This document shows, piece after piece, positions 656 through 29,242 of a DNA stretch of 64,000 nt. Within the stretch, counting starts at the first letter, position 1. Every line of letters begins with the position of its first letter. Source of the stretch: a virus (lineage: Duplodnaviria; Heunggongvirae; Uroviricota; Caudoviricetes); IMG/VR virus record IMGVR_UViG_3300044259_000028, positions 18,283 to 82,282 of that record, one strand, 5' to 3'. The position numbers were made by a program, and so were the translations under genes. Under the pieces are notes generated by a model. The model worked only from the letters and a program-made list of their open reading frames with translations, did no database searches and was not told the DNA's origin.

Positions 656-731
656 GGTTCTGTAGTTAAACTGGTTATAACTATGGCTTGATAAGCCATC
701 ATTCCGTGTTCGATCCACGGTGGAACTACCA
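656..731 (+). tRNA. tRNA-Ile(GAT)
   Basis: 76 nt. Acceptor ggttctg/tggaact (4 WC + 3 G-U), D-stem gtta/taac with GG loop, anticodon arm atggc-TTGATAA-gccat, 4-nt variable, T-arm ccgtg-TTCGATC-cacgg, A-CCA. Confidence 0.6.
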
Positions 732-742
732 AGAATTCAGTC

Positions 743-817
743 ATCGTTTGAGCCAGATGGGACGGCAGGAGGTTTTGACCATTCTATGAACAGGTTCGAT
801 TCCTGTAAGCGGTGCCA
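743..817 (+). tRNA. tRNA-Gln(TTG) candidate
   Basis: 75 nt. Acceptor atcgttt/aagcggt (2 G-U), D-stem gcc/ggc with GG loop, anticodon loop TTTTGAC (anticodon TTG, like E. coli tRNA-Gln loop as recalled from memory; stem has one G-A mismatch), T-arm acagg-TTCGATT-cctgt, G-CCA. Confidence 0.5.
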
Positions 818-6030: not shown

Positions 6031-7071
6031 ATGATTACTCGTGATTTTGGCGCTAATGGTCAATTTACCGTATCGGACTGGACACAAGAGCTTAACGTAA
6101 TCCCTAACCAATGGGGTACTATCGGCCAACTTGGTATCTTCACTGAAGAAGGTGTCGCAGAACATGTTGTGCAATTTGAAGAAATCATCAAAGACGGAGC
6201 ACTGATTGTTGACCGTGTACGTGGTGACCGTTCTAATGTTGGTCGTGATGCTTCTCGTAAGATTCACTCGTTTAGCGTACCACACTTCCCAATGGAAGAT
6301 GCGATTTATCCACAGGATATTCAAGGTAAGCGTGCTTACGGTTCTGCTACCGAGGCTGAGACTTTTGACCTAGTTCGCGCCCGTAAGATGGAGCGTATCC
6401 GTCAGAACCATGCATGGACTCTGGAAGCTGCACGTGCACAGGCTATCGTTCTAGGTACCGTGTATGCCCCTAACGGAACTGTGTCGCAAGACTGGTATCA
6501 GGAAATGACCGGCGCTGCTCGTCCAGCCGCTATTGACTTCCTGCTAGGAACTTCAACTACTGAGATTATCGGTAAGATTGAGCAAGCAATTGCTACGATT
6601 CAAGACAACGCTTCTGGTGAAAACTTCACTGGTATCGTCGCCCTGTGTGGTCCAACGTTCTTCGCTAAACTGATTAGTCACCCAACTGTCAAACAAGCTT
6701 ACCAATACTACACAAGTTCGCAAGAACCTCTGCGTAACCGTCTATCGGCTGGTGGTGGTAACTCGACAACTGTTCGTGGACGTGAGTTCCAATACGGTGG
6801 TGTGACCTTCAAGGAAATGCGCGATACCTACGCAGGACAAGCAATGATCCCTACCGGTGATTGCTACTTCCTACCACTAGGTGCTTCGTGCTTCCGTACC
6901 TACTTCTCGCCAGCTAACCGTTTCGGTTTGGTTAACACCATTGGTGAGCAAGTGTACATGTTTGAACAAGCTGCTCCTAACGGTACTGCTTACAGTATCG
7001 AAACAGAATCGAACTTCGTGAACGCTATCCTGCGCCCACTGCTGATCGTTAAAGCAAACTCAAGCAACTAA
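6031..7071 (+). CDS. Major capsid protein (lambda gpE-like)
   Basis: 346 aa. Position after the scaffold and decoration genes. Resembles the capsid protein E family as recalled from memory. Followed by a strong terminator. Confidence 0.7.
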   Translation: MITRDFGANGQFTVSDWTQELNVIPNQWGTIGQLGIFTEEGVAEHVVQFEEIIKDGALIVDRVRGDRSNVGRDASRKIHSFSVPHFPMEDAIYPQDIQGKRAYGSATEAETFDLVRARKMERIRQNHAWTLEAARAQAIVLGTVYAPNGTVSQDWYQEMTGAARPAAIDFLLGTSTTEIIGKIEQAIATIQDNASGENFTGIVALCGPTFFAKLISHPTVKQAYQYYTSSQEPLRNRLSAGGGNSTTVRGREFQYGGVTFKEMRDTYAGQAMIPTGDCYFLPLGASCFRTYFSPANRFGLVNTIGEQVYMFEQAAPNGTAYSIETESNFVNAILRPLLIVKANSSN

Positions 7072-10863: not shown

Positions 10864-13800
10864 ATGGCAGAAGATATTTCCACTTTAGTACTTGAGGTGA
10901 AATCTCAAGGTATTACAAAGGGAACCAATGACCTTGATAAACTAACTGTTGCAGCAGATAAGGCTGAATCAGCAGTAAAGCGTCTAGGTACATCTTGGGC
11001 ACAGGCCCAAGTAGGAATTTCGACAGGTACAGGGAATGCCTCCGCAATGGCAGGCGCAATTACGGCCCTAACTTCCGCTATTGAAAAGTTAGGTCTGCAA
11101 CAAACTCGTGCCGCCACTACAACAAGAGTCCACAATGTTGCTATGCAGGAAGCACATGCCACTGCGCGTGGCCTAGCAGGCTCTTTAGGAATGCTTTGGA
11201 CGACCTATGGAAATCTGGCTGGTATGGCAACCGGTTTAGCAATCGGTGCTGCCTTGAAGGGCGTTGTAAGCGTTGGTGCGGAAGTTGAGAACACCTTAGC
11301 GAAAATTCAAGTGTTAGGTGGCGCAACAACTGAAGAAGTTGCTAAAATGAAAGATACACTTCTAGCAGTTGGGCAAGGTGCACAAGGACCTAAAGATGTT
11401 GCAGAAGCTTTCTCAGTTCTAACATTAGCAGGTTTAGATGCAAAACAAGCCCTACAAGGGGTAGGAGCATCGCTTAACTTAGCAGTTGCAGGTGATATCA
11501 GTATCGAAAAATCTGCGGAAACACTTGTGCAAGTTGGTACAGCGCTAGGATACACCGCTGATGGATTTAGCCGAGTCTCTGACGTTGTAGCAAAAACTGC
11601 TGCTGTCAGTATGTCATCTGTCGAGTCTATTTCTGGTGCATTCAAGTCAGCCTCATCAGTCGGTGAGTTGTACGGTGCGAGCCTAAGAGACATTGGTGTA
11701 GGTTTAGCAGCAGTCGCTAACCTTGGTATTCAAGGTACTGCTGCTGGTACTGCACTTAAAAATATGTACAAAGACTTGGCTAGTGGTAGTGAAAAAGTTA
11801 CTCAAACACTGAAAGCGATGGGATTGAGTATTAACGACCTTAAAGGTAAGGATGGATATTTCCTACCTATCTACGAGGTTATTGAAAAGCTATCACAAGG
11901 TCTAGATAAAGTTAATGACCGCCAAACTGCGCTAGGTAATCTGTTCGGTGAACGTGGTGTTAAAAGTGCATCAGCACTTATCAAAGAATATAACACAGCT
12001 TCGTCGGCATTGCAAGAAGGTGGAGAAGTATTTAAAAACAAATTAGCAGAACAGATTGACGCTATTAACAAATCCTATGGATTTGCAGCAGAAGCTGCTA
12101 TTGTTATGAGTCAAACTTCTCAGAATCAGTTTAAGTCTGTAACAAACACACTCCAGACTAGTCTGATTAAAGCTTTTGATGACCTATCACCATTAATTGG
12201 TGATATCACCCGTGGCCTAAAGGCTGCATTCACTTCACCTGAGTTTATTGGTGGATTACAGACTATCATCACAACACTAGGAAATCTGATGTTGTGGCTG
12301 ACTAAGAATGGGGATGCAGTTAAAGTAATGATTGGTGCTTTCGCAGCGTTTAAAGCACTTGATATCGCCACCTCATTAATAGCTGTAGGGGCAAGCTTAA
12401 CATCTACTGCCGTGGCTGCTGAAGCTGCTGCAACAGGTATGAGTTCTGCTGGTATCGCTGCTAGAGGATTACAAGCTGCCCTAGGTCCATTTGGTCTAGC
12501 AATCGCAGCAGTAACCACTTTATGGGTTCTGTACAAATCTAAGCAAGACGCCGCACTAAACACAAGTGCTGTTAATGACTTAGGAGATGTTCTTGACAAG
12601 CTAAAAGAAAACCAGAAACAACTTGAGACTAATCACTCAATGCGTATGAGTGGCATGAATGAGGAAGCTATCGCTGCACAAGCTGCTACTAATGCTCAAA
12701 ATAGCGCGATAGACTCCCAGATTGCTAAATCCGCAGAATCAGTTAAAAAGTTAAAAGAAGACTTAAAAGCACGTGAAGCTGCTATGAGTCAAGTAGAACG
12801 TGCGCAAGTAGAACGTGCAAAACGTGCACAAGCTGCTGGTGACAAGGCTTATGGAAGTTCTGAAGCCCGCGATTACCTGACAGCCGTTAAAGCCGTAGCT
12901 GATGCTGAAGCTAAACATCTTAACACAGTTAAGGCCCTAGGTGAACAACGTAAGATTAACTCGGAGCTTGAAAGACGTGACGCCGAAGAGGCTGATGCTG
13001 CTGCAAGAAAATCTCGTGAGCGTGTAGCAGGAACTACGTCATTGACTGGAGATGAACCAGCAAAAGGTCTAGGCACTGCATTAGCTGCTAAGATTTCTGA
13101 AATCCATACAGCTTTAGCTAATATCCAAACTGAATATAAGCAGTACATTGATGACTCTAAAACAATGGTAGCCCTTGGTGAAGCCAATATGTTTGACGAG
13201 TTGAATAATCGTAAAAAAGCAAGTAAAGAGTATTTAGCTGCAATCGAGTCTGCATATCAAATGGAGATTGCGTTAGCTGATAAGTATCGTGACAAGGATG
13301 CTAGTAAACAAAAAGCACATCAAGATGCAATGATTGCCAATGCAGGCAAATATCGTCAAAAGATGATTAGTGCAGTAACAATTGCTGACAACAAAGATGA
13401 AAATGCTGTTTATAAAAAAGAAAAAGAAGCTTACGAAAAACAAATCAATGATATTGATCGTGTAGGAGCGGCTGAAGACAAGCGTCTGTCTAACGAGTTA
13501 AAAGGACTTAAGTCCATTGAAGATGGTGCAGGTCAACTTAAGAGTGTAAAGAGTGATGCTTCTGCAATTGCAACTGAAGAACTGATTCAGCAACAACAAC
13601 TTCGTAACCTTGAGTTAGAAGAAATTATCAGTACAGGTGACGAACAACGTGCAGCAGCACAAGAAGAGTTAAGCTGGGGAGAGAAACGTGTTGCGCGTCT
13701 ACGTGCTATTGCTAATGCACATCGTGAAATTGCCTCAGCACAACGAGTAGAAGAAGCTGATACTCGTATGACTAAAAATCTTGATGATGCTGTTTCCGCT

Positions 13801-16800
13801 GCTAAACGTTTTGAAAAAGCTATGGTGGATGCGTTCGGTGCATCTGGTAAGGCTATTGGTGAAGTCGCTATTGCATTTACACAAATGAACAAGGATCAGG
13901 ATACAGCCCTTGAACGTAAACGTAAGGCTTCAAAAGAAGACCAAGAGTCCGGTAAAGCCCAAGCTGTCTACGAGCAAGAAGCATTAGATGCTCGTATTAA
14001 CGGGTATGCTAACATGGCTTCTGCTGCAAAAGGATTTTTCTCCGTTGGTAGTGCTGGATACAAAACCATGGATGGTATTGCTAAAGTTGCACATGCTGCC
14101 CAAGTAGCACGTAATCTTATCGAGATGACTCAATTAGCAACCAAGGCAGTTCTTAACCAAGCTGCTGGTGATCCGTACACAGCATTTGCACGTATGGCTG
14201 CTATGGCTGCTGCTGTAGCTGCTTTAGGCTTCGCAGTCGGCGGTGGATTCAGTGGTGGAGGTGGTGGAAAAACTGCTGAAGAGGTTCAGAAAACTCAAGG
14301 TACAGGAAGTGTGCTAGGTGCTGCATCGGCAGTATCTGAAAGCATTTCTAAGTCGCTAGAAATCGTAAAAGATAACTCAGGACTAATGCTGCCATTGAAC
14401 CAACAAATGGCTAGTTCTCTGAAAAATATTGAAACAGCTATCGCTGGTGTTGCATCACTGGTAGCACGCTCAACTGGTGTTACATCAGGAAGTAATTTCA
14501 ATGTTCAAACCGGGACAATCGGCAATGCTGGTGGTGTAGCTGGAACTATCCAAAATCTGGTTTCATCTATCCCAGTTATTGGTGGAGTCCTTGGAAATCT
14601 TGCAGGACTTTGGGGTAAGACTACGCAGAAAATTGTGGACTCCGGTATTCAATTTGCAGGTACAGTTAAATCGCTACAATCAGGTTTAGGTTATCAACAG
14701 TACGCGAGTATTGACACTACTAAATCTTCGTACTTTGGATTTAAAAAGAGTACAAGTAACCGCGTGGAAACACAAGGGTTAAGTGATGAACTATCTCAAC
14801 AATTTGGTTTAATCTTTACAGGGTTAGAAGATACATTGACAGCGGCTGCTCCATTACTTGGAAAAAGTGCTAAAGATGTTTCTACCGCAATTGATAACTT
14901 CGTATTACCATTAACTCAAATCTCGTTAAAAGGATTAGAGGGTGATGCATTAACAAATGCAATCAATGGTGTTATTTCTAAATCTCTGGATGATATTGCA
15001 AAAGCAGCGTTTCCGGGCTACGAGAAGTTTACTAAAGTTGGTGAAGGTTATTCTGAGACGTTAATTCGTCTGGCTAACGATGTAGCTACTACGCAACAAG
15101 TGTTTGAACTACTAGGTAAGACACTTGACACTACAAAAGATACAACAGTAGAAGTTGTGGAGTCCTTAGTTACAGCCGCAGGTGGTATAGATAAACTACA
15201 GAGTCTGACAAAGACATTTGTAGATGATTTCTATACTGACGCCGAGAAATTAGCACCTGTTCAGTCGGCATTGACAGCAAGAATGTCTGAGTTAGGTTTT
15301 AGTTCTGTTAAAACAAACGATCAGTTCAAGGCATTGGTATTGTCACAAGACTTGACAACAGAAGCCGGACAGAAAATGTATGTGCAATTACTAAACCTTG
15401 CACCAGCATTTAAATCTGTTACTGATGCTTTAGAGAAGGCTTATACCTCTGCAATGACATTGCTAACAGGTGCACAAAATGCCCTTAAAGACAGTGTTAG
15501 TGCTGAAATTACTAAGCTTGATACCAAACTTACAATCGATAAAGCTAATCTGACAAAAGCTCAAAAGGCTGAAGATGAAGCTGCTAAAGATAGACACCAA
15601 ACTAACTTAGATAATATCGAAACTGAAGGAAAAGCACAATTAGAGGCTGCTAAAGCTGCTAGTGAGGTTGCCAAGAAAGCTAATGATGCTGCATTGTCAG
15701 CAGCAAAAGAACGTGAAACTTCTATCCAGAAAATTCTTGATAGTATCGACACTTCATTAACTGCTACAGAACAGTATGACCTAGCAGCAGCACATGCTAA
15801 AGCATTGGAGACAGTACGTAATGCTACTGCATCAGGTGATATCGCCAACTTCGCAGGATTAGATGATGCTATTAAAGAACTTGCAAAACCTACAGAAAGT
15901 CTGTTTAGCTCGTTCGCTGATTATCAGATTAGCCAAGCTCAAGCTAATGCAGCACTACTAGGATTGAAAGGTGCTGGTACAAATCAATTGACTGATGCAC
16001 AGAAACAAGTGCAAGCATTGACAAGTATTAAAGATGCATTAGAAGTCACTGGTCAAGCTACTATCGATGCGATTAACAAATCTATTGACGATCAAAAGTC
16101 GGCTGAAAATGACCGTTATGACAAGGAACAAAAAGCCTTAGATAATCGTCATCAAGAAGAGTTAGATAAGCTTCAAGCAACTCACGATGGCCAAGTTGCA
16201 GTATTAAATAGCATTCTAACAGAAGCTCAAAGCCAAATCGATGCAATAACCGGTGTTGATACGAGCATTAAAGCTCTGTCTGAAGCCATCCTCAACTTTG
16301 CGAAGTCTGTTGACAAAGCTAATGCTGCTGCTACTAATGCTGGAAAAGATACGACAACCACAAACGCAACAAAAGGTAATACTGCGTTTATCGAGTCGTT
16401 ATTCAATAGTTTGCTTGGCCGCTCAAGTGACAAAGAAGGTATGGCATTCTGGCTTAAAGCTCTTGAAAACGGAGCTACAAGGGAAAGTATTACGCAAGAC
16501 TTCCTGAATAGTGACGAGTACAAGAAACTACATCCAGAAGCATCATTTGCAGTTGGTACAGACTTTGTGCCTAATGATATGGTCGCTAATATCCATAAAG
16601 GCGAGCGTATTATTCCAGCCGCAGATAACGCAGAACTGATGAGACGCTTGAACACTGATGAAGCTACTCCTGAGTCTTCCAAACAAGCATTGCTTGATAG
16701 CAAGATGGATGAGTTAATCGACGCAGTTAAACGTGGAGATGTTGCTAACGTTCAAAAGACGAATGATATGTATCGTATCCTTCGCGATTGGGATGGTAAC

Positions 16801-16824
16801 GGTCTACCTCCAACACGTACATAA
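10864..16824 (+). CDS. Tail tape measure protein
   Basis: 1986 aa, long Ala/Gln/Lys-rich helical sequence with a hydrophobic central region. C-terminal ~60 aa resemble a DUF4214-type fold. Confidence 0.9.
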   Translation: MAEDISTLVLEVKSQGITKGTNDLDKLTVAADKAESAVKRLGTSWAQAQVGISTGTGNASAMAGAITALTSAIEKLGLQQTRAATTTRVHNVAMQEAHATARGLAGSLGMLWTTYGNLAGMATGLAIGAALKGVVSVGAEVENTLAKIQVLGGATTEEVAKMKDTLLAVGQGAQGPKDVAEAFSVLTLAGLDAKQALQGVGASLNLAVAGDISIEKSAETLVQVGTALGYTADGFSRVSDVVAKTAAVSMSSVESISGAFKSASSVGELYGASLRDIGVGLAAVANLGIQGTAAGTALKNMYKDLASGSEKVTQTLKAMGLSINDLKGKDGYFLPIYEVIEKLSQGLDKVNDRQTALGNLFGERGVKSASALIKEYNTASSALQEGGEVFKNKLAEQIDAINKSYGFAAEAAIVMSQTSQNQFKSVTNTLQTSLIKAFDDLSPLIGDITRGLKAAFTSPEFIGGLQTIITTLGNLMLWLTKNGDAVKVMIGAFAAFKALDIATSLIAVGASLTSTAVAAEAAATGMSSAGIAARGLQAALGPFGLAIAAVTTLWVLYKSKQDAALNTSAVNDLGDVLDKLKENQKQLETNHSMRMSGMNEEAIAAQAATNAQNSAIDSQIAKSAESVKKLKEDLKAREAAMSQVERAQVERAKRAQAAGDKAYGSSEARDYLTAVKAVADAEAKHLNTVKALGEQRKINSELERRDAEEADAAARKSRERVAGTTSLTGDEPAKGLGTALAAKISEIHTALANIQTEYKQYIDDSKTMVALGEANMFDELNNRKKASKEYLAAIESAYQMEIALADKYRDKDASKQKAHQDAMIANAGKYRQKMISAVTIADNKDENAVYKKEKEAYEKQINDIDRVGAAEDKRLSNELKGLKSIEDGAGQLKSVKSDASAIATEELIQQQQLRNLELEEIISTGDEQRAAAQEELSWGEKRVARLRAIANAHREIASAQRVEEADTRMTKNLDDAVSAAKRFEKAMVDAFGASGKAIGEVAIAFTQMNKDQDTALERKRKASKEDQESGKAQAVYEQEALDARINGYANMASAAKGFFSVGSAGYKTMDGIAKVAHAAQVARNLIEMTQLATKAVLNQAAGDPYTAFARMAAMAAAVAALGFAVGGGFSGGGGGKTAEEVQKTQGTGSVLGAASAVSESISKSLEIVKDNSGLMLPLNQQMASSLKNIETAIAGVASLVARSTGVTSGSNFNVQTGTIGNAGGVAGTIQNLVSSIPVIGGVLGNLAGLWGKTTQKIVDSGIQFAGTVKSLQSGLGYQQYASIDTTKSSYFGFKKSTSNRVETQGLSDELSQQFGLIFTGLEDTLTAAAPLLGKSAKDVSTAIDNFVLPLTQISLKGLEGDALTNAINGVISKSLDDIAKAAFPGYEKFTKVGEGYSETLIRLANDVATTQQVFELLGKTLDTTKDTTVEVVESLVTAAGGIDKLQSLTKTFVDDFYTDAEKLAPVQSALTARMSELGFSSVKTNDQFKALVLSQDLTTEAGQKMYVQLLNLAPAFKSVTDALEKAYTSAMTLLTGAQNALKDSVSAEITKLDTKLTIDKANLTKAQKAEDEAAKDRHQTNLDNIETEGKAQLEAAKAASEVAKKANDAALSAAKERETSIQKILDSIDTSLTATEQYDLAAAHAKALETVRNATASGDIANFAGLDDAIKELAKPTESLFSSFADYQISQAQANAALLGLKGAGTNQLTDAQKQVQALTSIKDALEVTGQATIDAINKSIDDQKSAENDRYDKEQKALDNRHQEELDKLQATHDGQVAVLNSILTEAQSQIDAITGVDTSIKALSEAILNFAKSVDKANAAATNAGKDTTTTNATKGNTAFIESLFNSLLGRSSDKEGMAFWLKALENGATRESITQDFLNSDEYKKLHPEASFAVGTDFVPNDMVANIHKGERIIPAADNAELMRRLNTDEATPESSKQALLDSKMDELIDAVKRGDVANVQKTNDMYRILRDWDGNGLPPTRT

Positions 16825-16838
16825 TAGAAAGGTCAGTA

Positions 16839-16874
16839 GGACGTAATCGAAAGGTTGCGTCCTATTTGTGTTTA
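16839..16874 (+). terminator. Rho-independent terminator after the tape measure gene
   Basis: aggacg...cgtcct hairpin followed by atttgtgtttatt. Confidence 0.55.
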
Positions 16875-16903
16875 TTGACACAATTCCTAATATATGTTAT
16901 ACT
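16875..16903 (+). promoter_or_regulatory. Sigma70-like promoter (TTGACA-17-TATACT)
   Basis: Read directly. Sits upstream of the RBS and ATG at 16947. Confidence 0.55.
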
Positions 16904-16946
16904 GTCATTTCAGATGCATAGCATCGTAATACTAATAAAGGAAGCT

Positions 16947-18551
16947 ATGAAAATTATCAAACCAACAACTATTAGTACATCCGGCACATTCACAAGATCA
17001 ACTGTCGGATATTATACTAATGTGAACGGTGTAATTACACAAGCTGCAATTAATACACCAAGATTTAACTATAAAGCTGCAAACTTAACCGCAGGAGCAA
17101 CACTTCTACTAGAAGCAGCCGCAACAAACTATATAGAATACTCGTCACAATTTGACAACGCATTCTGGTTTAAACAAGCAGTAACTATCACGCCCGATTT
17201 AGTAGTTAGCCCCGACGGAACAACAACAGGTGACAGGCTAAATGCTTCGGCTGGCAGTGGATTTCATGCATTATCTGCACTTACTAATGACTATAGTGGT
17301 CCATTATCTCTTTCTGTGTACGCTAAAAAAGGTACAGCAAATTGGGTTAAAATTGGATTCACCGATATTTCAACTGCAATTAATTACACAGCGTACTTTG
17401 ATCTGAATACTGGAACAATAGGTACAATTTCAGGAGGTGCAACCTGCACAATTGAAGACTGTTTAAATGGATGGTATCGTTGTTCAGTAAGTGCTACAGT
17501 TATAACAGCCCACTTCCCTTACATTGAGCCACATACAGCAGACGCTCAAGCTGCAAATTGGACAGCAGCAGGCACAGAGAATGTATACATTTGGCAAGCT
17601 CAGTACGAGAGAACAATAAACTTTACAAGTCCTATTTATACATCAGGTGGGCCGGGAACAAGGGCAGCAGACAGCAACACTTCTATGATGCTTTCAAACA
17701 TTCCTGAGAATGATTATCCTGTTTGGAGTGCTGCTACAACGTATGGTGTTGGGGATTTAGTGCTAGATTTAACGACGCATAAGATTTTCTCATCATCAGT
17801 GGCAGGTAACCTAAACCATCCGCCTCCAAATATTTCATATTGGGTAGACACTGGGTACGATAACAGATGGAGAATGTTCGACCAAAGTGTAAATTCACAA
17901 ACATCTAGTGCAACTGGTATTACAGTAGGTGTATTACCAGCAGCAAGATTTGACTCTATTATTGGACTAAATATCTCTGCTGCAACAGTTAACGTAAATG
18001 TTAACGACCCTGTATCAGGTATTGTGTATGAGAAAACACTCCCAATGACTTCATACTCAGATATTCAGGATTGGTATGCGTATTTTTATACTCCTATCCA
18101 GCGTCTGACAGATTTTGTAATTGGAGATATTCCTCCTGTTTACTCAAATGCAACGATCAATGTTACATTATCATCAACAGGCACTTCTTCTATCGGAGCA
18201 CTATTAGTAGGACTATCTAAAACACTTGGTATCTCTGAATGGGGAACTAAAGTTGGCATTATTGATTACAGTGTTAAAACGGTAGACGCCTTTGGTAACT
18301 ACACAATTGTTCAGAGAAACTTCAGTAAACGAGTTGATTTTTCTGTTCAGGTTCCGACAAACAGCGTCGATGATGTTCACTCCACACTAGCTTCATACAG
18401 AAGCACACCGGTAATTTATATCGGATCGAATGATAATGCTACACAACAATTTACGTCAACAATCGTTTACGGATTCTACAAAGACTTCTCGATTGACATT
18501 GCATACCCTGCTTACTCGGTATGTACTGCACAGATCGAAGGCTTAACTTAA
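16947..18551 (+). CDS. Tail tip or distal tail protein (putative; likely start at 16947)
   Basis: 534 aa from MKIIKPTT with AAGGAAG RBS. Ser/Thr/Asn-rich beta-type sequence, position after the tape measure gene. Confidence 0.35.
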   Translation: MKIIKPTTISTSGTFTRSTVGYYTNVNGVITQAAINTPRFNYKAANLTAGATLLLEAAATNYIEYSSQFDNAFWFKQAVTITPDLVVSPDGTTTGDRLNASAGSGFHALSALTNDYSGPLSLSVYAKKGTANWVKIGFTDISTAINYTAYFDLNTGTIGTISGGATCTIEDCLNGWYRCSVSATVITAHFPYIEPHTADAQAANWTAAGTENVYIWQAQYERTINFTSPIYTSGGPGTRAADSNTSMMLSNIPENDYPVWSAATTYGVGDLVLDLTTHKIFSSSVAGNLNHPPPNISYWVDTGYDNRWRMFDQSVNSQTSSATGITVGVLPAARFDSIIGLNISAATVNVNVNDPVSGIVYEKTLPMTSYSDIQDWYAYFYTPIQRLTDFVIGDIPPVYSNATINVTLSSTGTSSIGALLVGLSKTLGISEWGTKVGIIDYSVKTVDAFGNYTIVQRNFSKRVDFSVQVPTNSVDDVHSTLASYRSTPVIYIGSNDNATQQFTSTIVYGFYKDFSIDIAYPAYSVCTAQIEGLT

Positions 18552-18565
18552 TTTAAGGAAACAAA

Positions 18566-19714
18566 ATGGCAATGACCCCATTACCTCCAGCACCTCAGCG
18601 TACAGACTCACCAGAAGTGTTTGTACCAAAAGCTGACGCACTGGTAGCCGCACTTCCCGGTTTTGTTACGGAAGCAAACGCACTGCAAGTAGATGTTACC
18701 ACAAAACAGACTAATGCTGCAACCTCTGAAACCAATGCTGCAACGTATGCTGCAAATGCTTTAGCCTCTCAGAATTCGGCTATGTCCTCTGCAAATACAT
18801 CAGTATGGGTAAGTGGATTTAGTTATGCATCAGATGCCTCGGTAATTAGTCCACTTAATCATTTAACATACCGTAGGACTTCAGCCGGGTCGAGTACAAC
18901 TGATCCCTCGCTTGATCCTACAAATTTCACACCTTTAACATCTTTCGGTGGCTCACAAGTATTCACTACAAACGGGACATTTAATTTAGTCCCTTATGCA
19001 AGTTATTACATGATTGATGCCGTAGGTGGAGGAGGAAGTGGTACATCTTCTGCTGCTGCTGGTGGTGCTGGTGGAGGCGGAGGGGGAGAAAGGGTTATCC
19101 TAATTATCCCAGCTTCATCATTATCTGGCTCACAAGCGGTAGTTGTGGGGACAGGTGGTGCTACACGAACAAATGCTAACGGTCAAGCAGGTGGTAACAG
19201 TACATTTGGAGGAACCTTAGTAGTTGCTCACGGTGGTGCTGGTGGCTCTGCTAACGTTGGTGGTGTAGGTGGGGGCATTGCTGTGTCTTCCGTTACCACA
19301 GGGGCATCTGGACAAATGGCAGGTAATGCTGGTTCTTCAAATTCTATCCGTTGTGCTGAGTGGGGCGGTGGAGCAGGTGCTACTGCTGCTAATGGTACAG
19401 GAGGTGGTAGCAGTCTACATGGCGGCGGAGGTGGTGCCGCAGGAACATCTGGAGCTAGTGCACAATCTGGCGGGGCTTCTGGTAGCTATACAGGTGGTGG
19501 AGGCGGTGCTAGCGGTACAGTAGGCTCACCTAATGGTGTAGCAGGTGCAAATGCTGCTAATTCGACTGTCAGTGGTGCTGGTGGTGGAGCAGGTTATGAT
19601 GTTACAGGCAACGGTGGTGCTGGTGGATTCCCCGGTGGTGGAGGTGGTGGATGCGATGTATCCAAGGCATCTGGTGCTGGTGGAAACGGTGTTGTCCGTG
19701 TGTACTGGTGGTAA
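18566..19714 (+). CDS. Glycine-rich tail fiber-like protein
   Basis: 382 aa. C-terminal half is made of GGxGG repeats and ends VRVYWW. The DNA contains repeated GGTGGTGCTGGTGG. Confidence 0.4.
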   Translation: MAMTPLPPAPQRTDSPEVFVPKADALVAALPGFVTEANALQVDVTTKQTNAATSETNAATYAANALASQNSAMSSANTSVWVSGFSYASDASVISPLNHLTYRRTSAGSSTTDPSLDPTNFTPLTSFGGSQVFTTNGTFNLVPYASYYMIDAVGGGGSGTSSAAAGGAGGGGGGERVILIIPASSLSGSQAVVVGTGGATRTNANGQAGGNSTFGGTLVVAHGGAGGSANVGGVGGGIAVSSVTTGASGQMAGNAGSSNSIRCAEWGGGAGATAANGTGGGSSLHGGGGGAAGTSGASAQSGGASGSYTGGGGGASGTVGSPNGVAGANAANSTVSGAGGGAGYDVTGNGGAGGFPGGGGGGCDVSKASGAGGNGVVRVYWW

Positions 19715-19726
19715 ATGGGAGGTCTA

Positions 19727-20128
19727 ATGAGAGCAGCACAAATCAAAGACGGAGTAGTTATAAATTTCTGCTTTGTTGAAGAATTCACAGAAGAGTTCAT
19801 AGAAACTTTTGATTACGTAGACATTGGTGATATTTGGGATGGCAAGAAGTTTTCAAAACCAATTGTTGTGAAGACCCGTGATGAAAAGAAAGTAGAGCGT
19901 CAGGCGCAGGTAGATCGACTAACTGTAACAGTTGACGGAATGGTATTTGATGGTGATGAAGAAAGCCAGAACAGAATGGTAAGAGCAATTGCAGCTTTAA
20001 CCTTTGCTAGTAAGGAGTCTACAACATGGGTATTAAATAACAATACTGCTGTAGAGGTTACACTAGATCAACTTTCTAGGGCACTTGTTGAAGCAGGTAA
20101 AGCGCAAACTGCTGTTTGGGTAATATAA
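19727..20128 (+). CDS. Tail fiber assembly chaperone-like protein (putative)
   Basis: ~133 aa from ATG at 19727 with GGGAGG RBS, position after the fiber-like gene. Confidence 0.3.
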   Translation: MRAAQIKDGVVINFCFVEEFTEEFIETFDYVDIGDIWDGKKFSKPIVVKTRDEKKVERQAQVDRLTVTVDGMVFDGDEESQNRMVRAIAALTFASKESTTWVLNNNTAVEVTLDQLSRALVEAGKAQTAVWVI

Positions 20129-20415
20129 TGAAACGAGTATGGTTAGTATTTATTTTGGTTATAGCCCAAATATCTACCATACTCGCACCTTTTAGAACTT
20201 TATGGGCAATCACAATAGGTGACTACTCAAGAGCCTTGGAAGTTCTAAAAGGTTACGATAGATTAGGTAATGCTGTTACTAATGGAAATAGTAATGAGAC
20301 AATTAGTAGTAGGGCTAATCGTGCGAGGAATGAGAATGCGAAGTGGGGATGTTTCCTGTGCTCCATTTTAGATAAGATTGAGAATGACCACTGCAAAAAT
20401 TCAGCAGGAGTCTAG
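20128..20415 (+). CDS. Small membrane protein (N-terminal TM, Cys-rich C-terminus)
   Basis: TAATG coupling with the upstream ORF. The ORF track start at 20116 is TTG. 95 aa. Confidence 0.4.
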   Translation: MKRVWLVFILVIAQISTILAPFRTLWAITIGDYSRALEVLKGYDRLGNAVTNGNSNETISSRANRARNENAKWGCFLCSILDKIENDHCKNSAGV

Positions 20416-20433
20416 AAGTATTAAGGAGGTATT

Positions 20434-20778
20434 ATGCCGTCGATAGAGGTATTAGTTGCAATTCTTGGAGGGGCATTAACTGTCATTTCAGTGTTAGGTG
20501 GAGTAGTTTGGAACATGCTACGAGAAGAATCCAAGGAACATAGCGAGCTAATCAGTAAAAAAGCAGACGCTGATAGAGTGCATGAGATTGAAGCACGTTG
20601 GCAAGCAGAGTTAACATCTGTTAAAGAAGGTAATGAGAGATTAATTGACAAACTTTCACAACGTCATGACCGTGAATTAGATCAGCTATCAACACGACTA
20701 AGTGAACAGATTAGAAACACAGAAGCAAATATTCTTACACAAATTCGTTTAATGGTTCAAGTGCTGGAGAAAAAATAA
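20434..20778 (+). CDS. Membrane-anchored coiled-coil protein (i-spanin-like or holin-associated)
   Basis: 114 aa. One N-terminal TM (VLVAILGGALTVISVLGGVVW) then a charged coiled coil. Directly precedes the endolysin gene. Confidence 0.35.
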   Translation: MPSIEVLVAILGGALTVISVLGGVVWNMLREESKEHSELISKKADADRVHEIEARWQAELTSVKEGNERLIDKLSQRHDRELDQLSTRLSEQIRNTEANILTQIRLMVQVLEKK

Positions 20779-21320
20779 TGAGTCTAGACACAATTATCGA
20801 CAATATCATTAGCAATGAAGGTGGGTATGTCAACGATAGTTCCGACTTAGGCGGTGAAACTAAGTATGGCATTACAGTATTGACTGCTAAAGCTAATGGA
20901 TACTATGGAAATATGAAGGACTTGCCACTGTCTCTAGCTAGACAAATTTACGCAAACAAGTACTACTATGAACCTAAGTTCGACAAGGTAGCTGTTTTGT
21001 CAGAGAGTATTGCAGCAGAATTAACAGATACAGCCGTCAATATGGGTGTAGAAATCTCTAAAGGGTTTCTCCAGTCTTCATTAAACTTATTTAATAGACA
21101 AGAGAAGGACTATAAAGACATTCCTGAAGATCGCAGCATTGGTCCAATAACTTTAGCAGCTTTAGGTAGCTTCCTATCTAAACGAGGTAAGGAAGGTGAG
21201 CAGGTGATGGTGAGGACACTGAATATTATGCAAGGTGCTCGCTATATTGAGATAACAAAAGCTCGTGTTGCTAATGAAGAATTTTTATGGGGATGGCTAA
21301 AAAACCGCGTAGCGGTATAA
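20778..21320 (+). CDS. Endolysin, GH108-like lysozyme with C-terminal peptidoglycan-binding domain
   Basis: N-terminal NEGGYVNDSSDLGGETKYGIT resembles the GH108 signature. C-terminal PG_binding_3-like region. Confidence 0.7.
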   Translation: MSLDTIIDNIISNEGGYVNDSSDLGGETKYGITVLTAKANGYYGNMKDLPLSLARQIYANKYYYEPKFDKVAVLSESIAAELTDTAVNMGVEISKGFLQSSLNLFNRQEKDYKDIPEDRSIGPITLAALGSFLSKRGKEGEQVMVRTLNIMQGARYIEITKARVANEEFLWGWLKNRVAV

Positions 21321-21911: not shown

Positions 21912-23279
21912 ATGTCCGATAGTATTAAAGTATCTTCAGCATGGCCTGTAAATGAACTTGGAGAAGTTTTATTTGATGTAGGTACAGGCTCAGATAATGT
22001 GGGTGGTTTCTTATCACAAGATTTGCTCCCAGTAAATGCAATTACTGGTAAAGCATCTATCAAAGTTCCTCGTGGAAGTCGTTATAAACGTGGAGGACGA
22101 AAAGCTACTCGTCAAGTGTCTAGCCGAATGGCTACCGCTGCTAACGGAGCAGTTGGATACACGTACCACAACAACATTACAGTAGAAGCGGATGTTATTG
22201 CAATTCGCCCAACATTCAATAATGTTCATACAGCAGCACTAACAGGGGTAACATTTGCAGTTGCACCTACCACTGATTTCAGTAATCCTATTGTTCCAAC
22301 AGGTGCATGGGTTAATGGAACATCTGGTGTAGGAAGTTCTTCATCTCTAACAGTAGCTGCACGTTTAGCAGCAGAACAACCTTCGTTAACTCGCCCTGAT
22401 TGGGTGTTTATCAATTCTGTAGCACCTTCTGACGGTGTATCACTACGTCGATTCTGTGTACGGCACTTTGTCCCGGCAGCAAATGCTACCACTAGCGAAG
22501 GATTCTATGCACTAGACACAGTGTTCCATACGCCTAATAGCATTAACGCCGGTCGTGTATTCCAGACCTATCGTCAAGATGTGGATGGTGTAACGTCTAA
22601 GGCAGCTTTCACTAATACTACTCCACAATCTAAACCGGGTTTAATCATGGGTTGGGATTACATGCTAGCTAGTGGTGAGATTATTACCATTGCAGCGTCT
22701 GGAGATTCTATTACAGAAGGTGCAGTGAATGGTGCAATTGGTAATTTTGGTAATGGATGGGCTTATCAGGCAATTAGATTATTCCGTGAGCGTCACCCTC
22801 AAATACTGATTGAGTATGCTAACTACGGGTTATCTGGACAGAACACAGCGACATTTAATCCTGTCATTATCGAGCGTCTTCCTCGTATTGAACCTGATTT
22901 ACTGTTGTATTCCCCATTCTCAGTGAATGATGGCACACCAACAACATCAACAATTAACAATGGTGCAGTGTTGTCATCTAACTTGCAGACAGCAGCGAGA
23001 ACTTCTAATGTTCCGACTATTTATGTAGGTGGATGCCCTAACACACTCCAAAACTGGACAATTGCACAAGATGGTGTACGTCGTCTAGGTAACATGTTCT
23101 ACCGTGGTGAATTCAGAATGAGTTGCAACTACATTGACACAGACATTGATTTGTGGGATGGAGTTAAGGCACTAAAGCCCGAAGTAACTGATGACTTAAC
23201 ACACCCTAACGAGTATGGCGCAGGACTAGTTGCTAAAAATCAAGTTCTCCCAGCACTTGAACGTGCAATCCTAGGATAA
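21912..23279 (+). CDS. SGNH/GDSL hydrolase domain protein (putative receptor-modifying esterase or tail fiber)
   Basis: 455 aa. GDSITEG motif in the C-terminal half, with a beta-rich N-terminal half. Confidence 0.55.
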   Translation: MSDSIKVSSAWPVNELGEVLFDVGTGSDNVGGFLSQDLLPVNAITGKASIKVPRGSRYKRGGRKATRQVSSRMATAANGAVGYTYHNNITVEADVIAIRPTFNNVHTAALTGVTFAVAPTTDFSNPIVPTGAWVNGTSGVGSSSSLTVAARLAAEQPSLTRPDWVFINSVAPSDGVSLRRFCVRHFVPAANATTSEGFYALDTVFHTPNSINAGRVFQTYRQDVDGVTSKAAFTNTTPQSKPGLIMGWDYMLASGEIITIAASGDSITEGAVNGAIGNFGNGWAYQAIRLFRERHPQILIEYANYGLSGQNTATFNPVIIERLPRIEPDLLLYSPFSVNDGTPTTSTINNGAVLSSNLQTAARTSNVPTIYVGGCPNTLQNWTIAQDGVRRLGNMFYRGEFRMSCNYIDTDIDLWDGVKALKPEVTDDLTHPNEYGAGLVAKNQVLPALERAILG

Positions 23280-26200: not shown

Positions 26201-26410
26201 TTATTTCACAAAACTTTTCAAGGCCATCCAAATAGTTTTTCTTTGGATAAAGTTTCTGCCATCTGGTCCACAATGTCCTAGTTGCTGACGCTCTAAAGAA
26301 GCGAACCCGTATGCACTTCCATCGACAGGATCAAGTGTATGAGAACATTTAGAGTAAGTAGCGCCTACAAAGGAACCTTCGTACTTTTCACAATTTACAC
26401 AGAGTTTCAT
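26201..26410 (-). CDS. Small Cys-containing protein (zinc-ribbon-like)
   Basis: 69 aa, CVNCEK...CSH. Confidence 0.35.
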   Translation of the reverse strand: MKLCVNCEKYEGSFVGATYSKCSHTLDPVDGSAYGFASLERQQLGHCGPDGRNFIQRKTIWMALKSFVK

Positions 26411-28122
26411 TGCTTCAACCGTGCAACTACTTCTGCATAAGTAGTAGGATTGTACAGCTTACCATCTCGGAACACAACCTGCAATTCACCTTGTTCTTCT
26501 TGTACAGAATCCTGTTGATCGTACAGGACGTAATCATCACCCTCTTTCTCAACACGCAGCAAACCTTTCGCAGACTTCTTCACGCCGTTGTCAGTTGCAG
26601 GGTCTTTGAACAGTTCGCGTTGCTCACCATTTACGATACCGTAGGTAGCCTTAACAGCCATGCCGAAAGTATCACGAGTGATGTACTGATAGGTGTACGA
26701 ACCAATGCCGAACACAATATTACCAGCACTGAAACCTTTATCCATCAAGCGTTTCAGGATAGCTTCAGCACGTTCCAGTGTAATGCTGTCACCGTAGATC
26801 AGGCCCACACGCTGGTTCAGGGTCTTGAAACCTTTATCAGTAACAGTGCCACCGAAAATGTCCCACAGGCATTCTACAGCACCTTTCTGAGCAGGGGTTA
26901 GTTCCGCAGGTTCACAGGAGGAAATACTAGAACCGTCAATATAGTAATATTGTTTATCATAACGATTCCACTCAATGTAAGCCTCTACACGATAGATAAC
27001 ACCTTTTTGACGGAAGTAGCCAAAAGGACTCATATCTCCCATCTCACCGTGATCTGTACTAGAGCGGACTTCTTCTTCAAGTACTTCTTTTGCCCAGTCT
27101 TTCAAGTTATACTGTTCAGGAACGTCAACAATTTGCACAGTACCACAAATAATGTCAACAGGATCACCGCTATCAGGACGGAATACTACCTTAGCCTGAC
27201 CTAGTGCATTAACTTCACGAGCTAAGATTTCTTCTTTCAGAATGTTAGCAGTGTTAGTAATAACGTTCCAGAAGTCCCAAGTGTCAGAGACAATCGAAAC
27301 AATACCAGAAGGGTACAGTTCGGTAATCAGGCGACGGAAAGTTTGCACCTCGTCATCCTTACCACCCATACACATCACACTGTGTTCAGTCGCAGGAACA
27401 CTGCCACCTACCAGTTCCTTTTCAACATTAGCACCATAGTAAGTTTCCAGATAGTCAATCGCTGGTAACGTGTCAGTACCGTGACCGGCAGCGAACAGGT
27501 GACCAATAGTTTTGTACGCACCGCCGATACCTACCAGACCACGCATCGAGAAGTCGTGCAGCTGCCAGTCAGCGAATTGGATATCACTACCAGTAGCTTC
27601 TACATACTTATTCAGCAGGCGACGGTACTCATAGGCAATCGTTGCAATCGTAACTACCGGCCAGATTTCAGCCGACATAATAGTTTCGATGTAGTTCGTC
27701 AGCCAGAAGAATGCAGGGTGCGTGTTGTGGAAGGTTACGAACGGCACCTTGATATTTACACGAGTGCCTTCTGGCAACGCTTTAATACGCAGTGGCAGGT
27801 AACCCATATCATGTAGAGCAGCAATATGGTCAACACCGACAGCATCAGGGCCGAGGTAACAGTCCATGCGACGCTTGTATTCTGCAACAACAACATCCTT
27901 CGGGCGATTGAAGAAACCTTCGTTCCACGATTCGATCAGAAATTCCAGAACGAAACCTTGGATGCCAGCCACAACAACCTTATTGTCGTACAAGGAAGTC
28001 ATCTTTGCATGACCAGCCGAACGTGCAGTCAAATTGCTGTACACCAGTGTAGTACCTTCAGGATACTGAGGACCGTGACCGGTTTTGTAACCGTCAAGGG
28101 CCAGATGCGGTTTGATTTTCAT
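26407..28122 (-). CDS. Nicotinamide phosphoribosyltransferase-like (NadV/NAMPT family; NARP1 Namat candidate)
   Basis: Likely start MKIKPHLALDGYKTGHG (RBS GAAAGG). NAMPT family motifs throughout. 571 aa. Confidence 0.8.
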   Translation of the reverse strand: MKIKPHLALDGYKTGHGPQYPEGTTLVYSNLTARSAGHAKMTSLYDNKVVVAGIQGFVLEFLIESWNEGFFNRPKDVVVAEYKRRMDCYLGPDAVGVDHIAALHDMGYLPLRIKALPEGTRVNIKVPFVTFHNTHPAFFWLTNYIETIMSAEIWPVVTIATIAYEYRRLLNKYVEATGSDIQFADWQLHDFSMRGLVGIGGAYKTIGHLFAAGHGTDTLPAIDYLETYYGANVEKELVGGSVPATEHSVMCMGGKDDEVQTFRRLITELYPSGIVSIVSDTWDFWNVITNTANILKEEILAREVNALGQAKVVFRPDSGDPVDIICGTVQIVDVPEQYNLKDWAKEVLEEEVRSSTDHGEMGDMSPFGYFRQKGVIYRVEAYIEWNRYDKQYYYIDGSSISSCEPAELTPAQKGAVECLWDIFGGTVTDKGFKTLNQRVGLIYGDSITLERAEAILKRLMDKGFSAGNIVFGIGSYTYQYITRDTFGMAVKATYGIVNGEQRELFKDPATDNGVKKSAKGLLRVEKEGDDYVLYDQQDSVQEEQGELQVVFRDGKLYNPTTYAEVVARLKQ

Positions 28123-28123
28123 A

Positions 28124-28357
28124 TTAGAATACACCTTTCTCTTGTTTGATTTTACCCTCACTTTTAGAAAGTTTAAATGGGAAATTAAGATTAACACCGT
28201 CGAATCGTTGATATTTTCCTTCCCCAGTGACTGAAAGCAAATACCCTGCCTCCATTTCTACACCATCGATATGGGTAGCTTTCAAAGCAACACTACCGCC
28301 TAGAACTTCTAGATCGAAGGTGATTTTCTTTCCGTTAATCGTTGTAGTAACACTCAT
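28124..28357 (-). CDS. Hypothetical small protein
   Basis: 77 aa beta-rich ORF between the NAMPT-like and Prs-like genes. Confidence 0.4.
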   Translation of the reverse strand: MSVTTTINGKKITFDLEVLGGSVALKATHIDGVEMEAGYLLSVTGEGKYQRFDGVNLNFPFKLSKSEGKIKQEKGVF

Positions 28358-28369
28358 TTTCTTTTCTCC

Positions 28370-29242
28370 TTAAATAAGTTGGATCAATTTGTTATCCAGC
28401 AGTTCTGGTTTGCCCATAAAGTTGGATACGTAGATTTTATCTATGAAACCATCGAACACTTCTAGACCAGCCGAGAAGATGCCGTGGGTAACATACAGAC
28501 TAATCTTACGATCCTCGTTTGTAGGATAGTTTACATCAGCTTTAATGGCTTTTGCAAGCTCAATAAAGGTGCGCCCACCGTCGCAAATATCATCTACAAT
28601 CAAGAATTCCTTATGCGGAGTTACACCGAAAGGTGGGCGGATAGGATCAAGCAACGATGTGCGCTCAATCTTACCGGTTGCTACATTCCGAACCTTCGTT
28701 GCTCGGATTACGGAATCATACCCGAGTTGTTTAGCGAAGTCAAACACTTTCTTTTCTGCACCTGCATCCGGGGAAATAACCGCAGTGTTTTCAGGCTTGC
28801 AGTAGTTTCCGATATGCCGCGCACAGAATGTCAGTGGATGCTGGAATAAATTATTAATCAATGCAGCACCTACCGGCGAGTGGATATCATGACAGATAAC
28901 ACGTTCGAAGTCAAGGGCGTTAATAAAATCTGCAACAACTTTCACAGACAAACTTTCACCAACATTACATACACGATCTTGACGAGCATAAGGTAGATAT
29001 GGCATCTCTAAGACAAACTTGAATCGTGCATAGAACAGACGACGGGCAGCATCTACCACCAATGCCAGATCAAATAGATCACTGTTGTTCTTAAAGTTGA
29101 ATACGATGCGTGCACGTGGATTAATTTCGAAAGACTGTAGACCATCTGGTGCATCAATACGAATACACGATTCACCAGCAGGAAATACAGTCTTAGTAAT
29201 TTGGTATTCCTTACCACTAATGTAAAGTTTAATATTCTCCAT
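28370..29242 (-). CDS. Ribose-phosphate pyrophosphokinase-like (Prs family; NARP1 Adps candidate)
   Basis: PRPP-binding loop IVDDICDGGRTF and ...VTHGIFSAG match Prs family. Confidence 0.75.
   Translation of the reverse strand: MENIKLYISGKEYQITKTVFPAGESCIRIDAPDGLQSFEINPRARIVFNFKNNSDLFDLALVVDAARRLFYARFKFVLEMPYLPYARQDRVCNVGESLSVKVVADFINALDFERVICHDIHSPVGAALINNLFQHPLTFCARHIGNYCKPENTAVISPDAGAEKKVFDFAKQLGYDSVIRATKVRNVATGKIERTSLLDPIRPPFGVTPHKEFLIVDDICDGGRTFIELAKAIKADVNYPTNEDRKISLYVTHGIFSAGLEVFDGFIDKIYVSNFMGKPELLDNKLIQLI

Follow-up and report, generated by a model that had tools for sequence, protein, structure and literature searches.

Does a dense array of Chi octamers in a phage tail-fibre gene act on the host recombination enzyme RecBCD, or does it follow from the protein that the gene encodes? 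This question is raised by a stretch of 64,000 nucleotides from a virus of the Caudoviricetes (positions 18,283 to 82,282 of the IMG/VR record IMGVR_UViG_3300044259_000028; this whole stretch is called the window throughout). Here, the octamer GCTGGTGG, known as Chi of Escherichia coli, is present six times on the + strand between positions 19058 and 19683, a distance of 626 bp, and all six copies lie within the open reading frame (ORF) 18566-19714, the tail-fibre gene. Our analysis indicates that the cluster is very probably a by-product of coding, with chance and codon-context bias included, and that a RecBCD-related function is neither needed to account for it nor likely.

The cluster is real, and it is far above the expectation from sequence composition alone. 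Both strands of the window together contain ten copies of GCTGGTGG, while dinucleotide-preserving shuffles (n=100) gave 1.30 +/- 1.18 copies per window, and none of the 100 shuffled sequences reached ten. A first-pass annotation of this DNA had noticed the six + strand copies in the glycine-rich gene, and the octamer count confirms them: Five of the six positions that it gave are exact, and the last copy starts at 19676 rather than 19677. It had also rightly placed a seventh copy in the tape-measure gene, the start of which is 14527 and not 14526. Its tally of seven was incomplete, as the copies at 6748 (+), 40645 (-) and 51141 (-) had been overlooked. The fibre gene and the octamers are as follows:

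18566-19714, + strand: tail-fibre gene, 382 amino acids (aa) with 88 Gly and 59 Ala (23% Gly)
19058-19065, + strand: GCTGGTGG copy 1, GCT GGT GG(T), Ala165-Gly-Gly
19067-19074, + strand: GCTGGTGG copy 2, Ala168-Gly-Gly
19187-19194, + strand: seventh Ala-Gly-Gly of the fibre gene, not a Chi octamer, encoded GCAGGTGG
19238-19245, + strand: GCTGGTGG copy 3, Ala225-Gly-Gly
19577-19584, + strand: GCTGGTGG copy 4, Ala338-Gly-Gly
19619-19626, + strand: GCTGGTGG copy 5, Ala352-Gly-Gly
19676-19683, + strand: GCTGGTGG copy 6, Ala371-Gly-Gly, inside the S-G-A-G-G motif that is conserved in the family
6748-6755, + strand: GCTGGTGG in the major capsid gene, in-frame Ala-Gly-Gly
14527-14534, + strand: GCTGGTGG in the tape-measure gene, in-frame Ala-Gly-Gly
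40645-40652, - strand: GCTGGTGG in the gene for a gp2.5-like single-stranded DNA-binding/annealing protein (40449-41114, -), in-frame Ala-Gly-Gly
51141-51148, - strand: GCTGGTGG in ORF 50729-51940 (-), the C-terminal part of which matches a PHROG family named dATP/dGTP pyrophosphohydrolase, in-frame Ala-Gly-Gly

All ten copies in the window are read in frame 0 on the sense strand as GCT-GGT-GGN, i. e. as Ala-Gly-Gly. In the codon usage of this genome, GCT makes up 0.44 of the alanine codons and GGT 0.56 of the glycine codons, and each is the commonest codon for its residue. The fibre gene encodes Ala-Gly-Gly seven times, six times as GCT-GGT-GG and once as GCA-GGT-GG. The first-pass annotation had proposed repeated GGT GCT GGT GG codons for Gly-Ala-Gly-Gly as the immediate cause of the cluster, and the frame check of every copy bears this out. 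Moreover, the case that it had itself held against a role as Chi, an octamer that only mirrors the codon choice for Gly-Ala-Gly-Gly, is essentially what our data show. We suggest that the C-terminal domain of the fibre requires many glycine/alanine motifs of the form (G)G-A-G-G. Any Ala-Gly-Gly in the preferred codons reads GCT-GGT-GGN, so that the coding strand contains GCTGGTGG. Codons that end in T are mildly preferred ahead of a codon that starts with G, which raises the count, and one slippage duplication of 9 bp contributes one copy. The orientation is shared because all copies are sense codons of one gene.

The duplication is formed by copies 1 and 2, which represent a perfect 9-bp tandem repeat (TGCTGGTGG twice, 19057-19074) and provide the protein with one additional Ala-Gly-Gly. 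The homologues vary in length in this region (residues ~160-172), and the arrangement suggests that the duplication arose by slippage. A second 9-bp tandem repeat (GGTGGTGGA twice) is found at 19634-19651. In addition, five of the copies have GGTGCTGGTGG in common, and the identical words that are repeated in the gene, (GGT)GGTGCTGGTGG, are 11-14 nt long.

To judge the number of copies, we used a null model in which the protein is kept and the synonymous codons are shuffled; in a variant, the base that follows each codon is kept as well. For the whole window, this model gives 4.7 copies for the sense strand, as compared to the ten observed (P 0.007), and 0.18 copies for the antisense strand, where none is present (P 0.83 for 0 or fewer). 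Coding alone thus predicts the property that all copies have one orientation. A genome-wide excess or strand bias of the octamer, for which the first-pass annotation had proposed to look, does not point beyond coding either: Outside the fibre gene there is no excess, with four copies observed and 2.8 expected (P 0.29), or 3.7-3.9 if the codon context is considered, and the sense bias of 10:0 is as predicted by the codon-aware null model. Within the fibre gene, six copies are observed and 1.9 are expected if synonymous codons are shuffled within the gene (P 0.002), or 2.4-2.6 if the following base is also kept (P 0.005-0.008). If the 9-bp tandem is counted once and the codon context is kept, five copies stand against 2.14 expected ones (P 0.017, which is weak for a word that was chosen post hoc).

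Similar clusters recur in glycine-rich genes of other viruses. More than 120 IMG/VR contigs contain the 17-mer doublet GCTGGTGGTGCTGGTGG; the matches listed cover a G+C content (GC) of 27-68% and include two contigs with names of giant-virus metagenome-assembled genomes (MAGs). Among the 125 doublet matches listed, 112 are read in the Ala-Gly-Gly frame of an ORF with 150 aa or more, and the median local glycine content is 28%. At least four Chi octamers within 717 bp are present in 46 of these listed matches and at least six in eight of them, with essentially all copies co-oriented. The matches listed comprise 55 ORFs that contain 4-14 copies of GCTGGTGG each. When these 55 ORFs and the gene of the window were scanned, 43 of the 56, among them the gene of the window, matched the Pfam family Gly_rich_2 (PF21722) at E <= 0.001; one ORF with a Chi cluster from IMG/VR matches the Pfam family of the T-even GP38 protein. 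Dense co-oriented Chi clusters are therefore a recurrent property of Gly_rich_2 genes in viruses of very different composition, and given this recurrence, the cluster does most likely not serve the control of RecBCD. It also calls for caution: The search for Chi and for other G/T-rich motifs in phage genomes needs a codon-aware null model because glycine-rich fibre genes yield dense co-oriented clusters of GCTGGTGG in the absence of selection.

The fibre genes of the two closest sequences found, L002 and L003, are 100% identical to that of the window and are uninformative with respect to the conservation of the sites. The nearest diverged relative (P0001/L004, 47% identity, syntenic, on an 88-kb contig) has six Ala-Gly-Gly motifs that are written in six different codon combinations, and not a single copy of GCTGGTGG. 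The sites are not conserved in this relative. The more distant L007, with a glycine-rich C-terminus and the codon preference of the phage (0.56 for GCT and 0.54 for GGT), has three Chi octamers where 2.4 are expected. A locus search seeded by an alignment of four sequences retrieved mostly proteins that have the N-terminal domain alone in common, so the conservation test includes few glycine-rich orthologues. A megablast search of positions 17000-21000 against the phages in GenBank gave no match, a 37-mer from the fibre gene was not found in IMG/VR, and a scan of IMG/VR with the single protein recovered no relatives.

Several observations weigh against the idea that codon usage explains the cluster in full. 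First, the excess in the fibre gene is nominally significant over every codon-aware null model (P 0.002-0.017). Second, GCT-GGT is used in six of the seven Ala-Gly-Gly tripeptides of this gene as compared to one of its seven Ala-Gly pairs that are followed by a residue other than glycine. Third, neither of two candidate causes accounts for the residual excess: Translational accuracy was rejected, as the invariant glycines are not enriched for GGT (14/24 vs 34/64, P 0.81), and long internal repeats or gene conversion as a source of identical codons are unsupported, as the gene contains only words of 11-18 nt and the one 9-bp tandem duplication. Finally, TGCTGGTG is the top over-represented octamer of the sense strands, with 20 copies as compared to 6.4 expected and to 11.3 if the next base is kept. 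This shows a codon-context effect that our null models capture only in part, and a remainder of ~1.8-fold is left when the context is kept.

The copies of TGCTGGTG are distributed over the window (22 in total, ten on the + and twelve on the - strand, e. g. at 12834, 14163, 29173(-), 45383(-), 53835(-) and 62092(-)) and track the direction of the genes; 19 of the 20 sense copies are read as NNT-GCT-GGT-GNN. The same word is the second most frequent octamer of the Chi-rich phages LLS and P1 (PMC12315714). Further words that have been published as Chi or are candidates for it were counted as well: The window has few copies of GCTGGCGC, GCTGGCGG, GCTGGAGG, GCGCGTG and GAAGCGG; the fibre gene has many of GGTGGTGG and GNTGGTGG because of its glycine codons, as is the case for GCTGGTGG. 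A simple bias towards the codon pair GCT-GGT was tried as well and rejected: Ala-Gly pairs have this form 42 times in the genome as compared to 33 times expected (P 0.055), and there is no excess for Ala-Gly followed by another residue. Codon-pair bias covers part of the excess at most, and next-base context somewhat more.

What is left may be pure chance on top of codon usage, i. e. a post-hoc fluctuation that was noticed only since the word is famous, and we regard the chances of this explanation as evenly balanced. The residual excess can be traced to GCT at six and GGT at all seven of the motifs, and the contrast in the alanine codon alone is not significant (Fisher P 0.10). With the duplication collapsed and the codon context kept, the excess is reduced to the P value of 0.017 given above. 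Moreover, GCTGGTGG ranks only 679th of the 31,738 sense octamers of the window when compared to the codon-aware null model, and the first-pass annotation came from a screen of 64 kb for anything unusual. On the other hand, the genome-wide excess of TGCTGGTG suggests a real codon-context bias and not noise alone. Chance is, however, not truly a rival to coding as the source of the cluster, it is the simplest form of that explanation. The remaining two- to threefold excess in the gene is presumably due to chance or to a local homogenisation of the sequence, and not to selection. With the small residual at the level of the gene (P about 0.005-0.02), the Chi idea is weakened but formally alive.

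The fibre gene follows those for the tape-measure protein (10864-16824, 1986 aa) and the distal tail protein (16866-18551, 561 aa), and on its 3' side are the genes for a DUF4376 fibre-like protein, a GH108 endolysin and an SGNH/GDSL-domain protein; the lysis genes come after the DUF4376 gene. These neighbours confirm the location in the tail module, and profile searches assigned the protein to PHROG tail families. Its match to Gly_rich_2 covers profile positions 1-225 of 226 and has a score of 23.2 bits, just below the gathering cut-off of 24.3 (E 7.9e-5); precomputed assignments to PF21722 exist for most of the 56 database homologues. The protein consists of two parts:

18566-18940, + strand: N-terminal anchor domain of ~125 aa, with a long helix (16-78 in the model) and then a small beta domain
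18965-19711, + strand: glycine-rich domain, aa 134-381, the stretch matched by Pfam, with the seven Ala-Gly-Gly tripeptides

An AlphaFold2 model of the fibre protein has a mean predicted local distance difference test (pLDDT) score of 73.7 and three loops of low confidence. In a Foldseek search, this model matched the tail tip of mycobacteriophage Bxb1 (9d93_Qa, E 2.8e-8, probability 1.00) and the fibre of cyanophage Pam3 (7ypx_A, E 3.3e-6, probability 1.00); weaker matches to the glycine-rich domain of ALK/LTK came next. As modelled, the fold is the one common to the solved glycine-rich fibre proteins of phages, and the matches to Bxb1 and Pam3 and the weak ones to ALK/LTK suggest that the glycine motifs have a structural role. 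In the alignment, several of the Ala-Gly-Gly tripeptides share positions with glycines that do not vary within the family, as in S-G-A-G-G near the C-terminus. The fibre resembles the Bxb1 tail tip (PDB 9d93, chains Qa/Qb) and the Pam3 fibre (7ypx, 7yfw) in its match to the whole Gly_rich_2 profile, albeit just under the cut-off, in the fold and in the position of the gene behind those for the tape-measure and distal tail proteins, whereas its N-terminal anchor is of a different, widely shared type.

In 78 IMG/VR loci and 24 loci of bacterial genomes, only residues 1 to ~125 are matched; the C-termini differ, and many of them are unrelated. Fusions of the anchor domain are distributed over IMG/VR contigs, genomes of betaproteobacteria and sphingomonads, phages and prophages, and a match in a Polaromonas MAG has 73% identity over 48 aa. 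The position around aa 125 is a clear module boundary for the swapping of receptor domains. From the Pfam match, the homologues, the structural model, the anchor-domain fusions and the gene order, it follows that the gene encodes a tail fibre of modular build, the distal domain of which is rich in glycine.

In such a gene, the repeated words might be short patches of homology for slippage and for recombination between fibre genes, as has been proposed for the glycine-rich motifs of the T-even gp38 adhesins; gene conversion or slippage would keep them uniform, independent of RecBCD and Chi. The five copies that have GGTGCTGGTGG in common, the perfect 9-bp tandem duplication and the variable length of homologues at residues 160-172 would fit with this idea, as would gp38, in which exchanges often take place in or near these motifs, which are conserved (PMC3157838, citing Tetart et al. 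1996, 1998). The gp38 motifs are similar to those of the window fibre in that both are conserved glycine-rich structural motifs of a receptor-binding protein with repeated similar DNA words; this is, however, a likeness of motifs rather than a demonstrated homology of the two proteins, and no recombination breakpoints were observed at the motifs of the window. Moreover, only very short patches are present, neither extended repeats nor mosaic breakpoints were seen at them, the module boundary lies at ~aa 125, upstream of the glycine-rich domain, and L004 writes the same motifs with varied codons. We therefore consider it unlikely that the words act as such patches.

A functional Chi cluster is even harder to reconcile with the data, and we regard it as very unlikely. 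It would require that RecBCD of the host recognises GCTGGTGG and that the six co-oriented sites were selected at synonymous positions. A leftward-moving RecBCD would then be stopped and RecA be loaded, and this would protect the structural arm of the genome, promote recombination of the fibre module, or both. This idea draws on the exact octamer being present six times in a single orientation in 626 bp, on the two- to threefold excess over the codon-aware null models, and on the spelling of six of seven Ala-Gly-Gly tripeptides as Chi in contrast to one of seven Ala-Gly pairs without a following glycine that have the same codon pair. In addition, the cluster has the module boundary of the fibre (~aa 125, ~nt 18940) close by on its left, which is the side of RecA loading according to the orientation rule (PMC12315714), and Chi-rich phages such as LLS and P1 do exist (PMC12315714). 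A Chi sequence on the top strand is read by RecBCD that arrives from the right (PMC12315714), and the first-pass annotation was thus correct in naming entry from the right as the direction relevant for these copies.

The distribution of the octamer in the genome argues against this function. The genes form two convergent arms, with + strand genes up to 23279 and - strand genes from 23560, and the strand of GCTGGTGG tracks these arms: Eight copies are on the + strand in the left, rightward-transcribed arm, and two are on the - strand in the right, leftward-transcribed arm. Flanking contigs were available from the Joint Genome Institute (JGI) sample 3300044475; they do not overlap each other, and no terminus was seen. 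The left flank (8.9 kb) is devoid of GCTGGTGG, and the right flank (8.45 kb) has one copy on the - strand, i. e. one in 17.4 kb. Over a genome of at least 81.4 kb, only five copies are thus located outside the fibre gene. On the right, at least 45 kb of known sequence separate the cluster from the end, and RecBCD coming from either known end would have to cross ~40 kb or more before it meets a correctly oriented copy. The orientation tracks transcription rather than a DNA end. Outside the fibre gene, where there is no excess, one copy is found every ~16 kb, as compared to one every 1.9 kb in LLS and P1 and one every 4.6 kb in E. coli (PMC12315714). In phage LLS, by contrast, the active Chi copies are concentrated near the end at which RecBCD enters (PMC12315714).

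The comparison with phages that do make use of Chi points in the same direction. LLS, P1 and the Pseudomonas phage MD8 (with GCTGGCGC as its Chi) are Chi-rich and rely on RecBCD of their hosts (PMC12315714, PMC3784561). They have the octamer and several co-oriented copies close together in common with the window. However, the Chi-rich phages contain 23-50 sites all over the genome, concentrated near the RecBCD entry end, and they have no Rec module, whereas the cluster of the window lies within one gene, is oriented with the coding strand and is not accompanied by enrichment elsewhere. With Chi of E. coli the window shares that frequent codons boost the octamer and that its polarity follows the orientation of the genes (PMC12315714, PMC8022716); the difference is that, for E. 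coli and its phages, a codon-usage explanation was weighed with regard to the leucine codon CTG, the commonest codon in Chi (PMC12315714), whereas every copy in the window is in the GCT-GGT-GG frame.

The phage itself does not belong to the expected class either. It is an uncultured lytic siphovirus. The window contains genes for the large terminase, the portal, the capsid and a siphovirus tail, and a T7-like replication set with primase-helicase, family A polymerase (PolA) and ligase. In the same set, a gene at 39168-40139 matches an exonuclease family of PHROG (E 3.5e-63), and the gp2.5-like match of the single-stranded DNA-binding/annealing protein is weak (E 1e-8). The phage appears to encode its own exonuclease and possibly an annealing protein, in contrast to the lambdoid class of Chi-rich phages, which lacks a Rec module (PMC12315714, PMC3784561). 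PHROG scans of 47 of the 83 ORFs did not reveal a known RecBCD inhibitor, a result that is uninformative since inhibitors of this kind are small and differ widely and the other 36 ORFs lie outside the scan.

The probable host is a further problem for a Chi function. Among cultured phages, the major capsid protein is closest to those of Limnohabitans phage DC31 (52% identity) and Curvibacter phage P26059A (47%). The hosts of the nearest relatives are thus freshwater Betaproteobacteria, for which Chi of this sequence is not established. For the N-terminus of the fibre, the best genomic matches are in MAGs of Polaromonas, Noviherbaspirillum, Bordetella and Sulfuricella, followed by Sphingomonadales, and no enteric or Vibrio genome is found among these matches. 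The host is thus probably not an enteric bacterium. Support for Chi of the GCTGGTGG type comes mainly from Enterobacteriaceae, and its rare detections in betaproteobacteria were considered likely false positives (PMC8022716); in Pseudomonas, Chi is GCTGGCGC (PMC12315714). The octamer that is present six times is the exact Chi of enteric bacteria, and it may not be Chi of the host. The phage has a GC of 42%, that of Limnohabitans phage DC31 is 37.5% (12-kb region), and the bacterial contigs on which the fibre N-terminus has its closest homologues have 55-62%. With a host from these groups, the phage would be far more AT-rich than the bacterium that it infects.

Taken together, the role that the first-pass annotation had envisaged, with Chi sites selected for the protection of linear DNA or as a recombination hotspot, finds no support in the reading frame, the gene arms, the lack of an excess outside the fibre gene, the diverged relative L004, the identical clusters in many unrelated viral Gly_rich_2 genes, or the host and phage class. 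It is even less probable that the residual preference, with six of seven Ala-Gly-Gly tripeptides spelled as Chi and TGCTGGTG as the top octamer, is the result of real selection by which the glycine-rich receptor-binding genes of this phage, and perhaps Gly_rich_2 fibre genes in general, were co-opted as co-oriented arrays of Chi or Chi-like sites that recruit RecBCD and RecA for exchange at the junction of anchor and receptor domain to their left. If Chi were active here, the shuffling of receptor-binding domains would be tied to RecBCD hotspots of the host, which would be relevant for the evolution of phage host range; the present evidence does not support such Chi-driven shuffling.

Several other genes of this phage deserve mention. 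It encodes a ribonucleotide reductase, a thymidylate synthase, nicotinamide adenine dinucleotide (NAD) salvage genes, an RNA ligase and three tRNAs. The NAD-salvage pair consists of a NAPRTase/NAMPT-family gene (26407-28197, -) that adjoins a PRPP-synthetase-like gene (28370-29242, -), and it is kept in L004. RNA ligase and metallophosphoesterase genes are located at 58138-59295 (-) and 36443-37291 (-), and the left flank (L229, 2375-3595) encodes an RtcB ligase with an HD-domain protein; these proteins could form an RNA-repair set, perhaps to counter anticodon nucleases of the host. At the end of the structural/lysis arm, a protein of 455 aa (21912-23279, +) carries a C-terminal SGNH/GDSL esterase domain and could be a receptor-modifying or depolymerase-type esterase. 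An HNH endonuclease gene (38448-38996, -) is inserted beside the exonuclease gene, and its product may be a homing endonuclease. The tRNA genes are those for Ile-GAT and Gln-TTG at 656-817 (+), just upstream of the terminase gene, and for Lys-CTT at 42696-42766 (-) in the replication arm.

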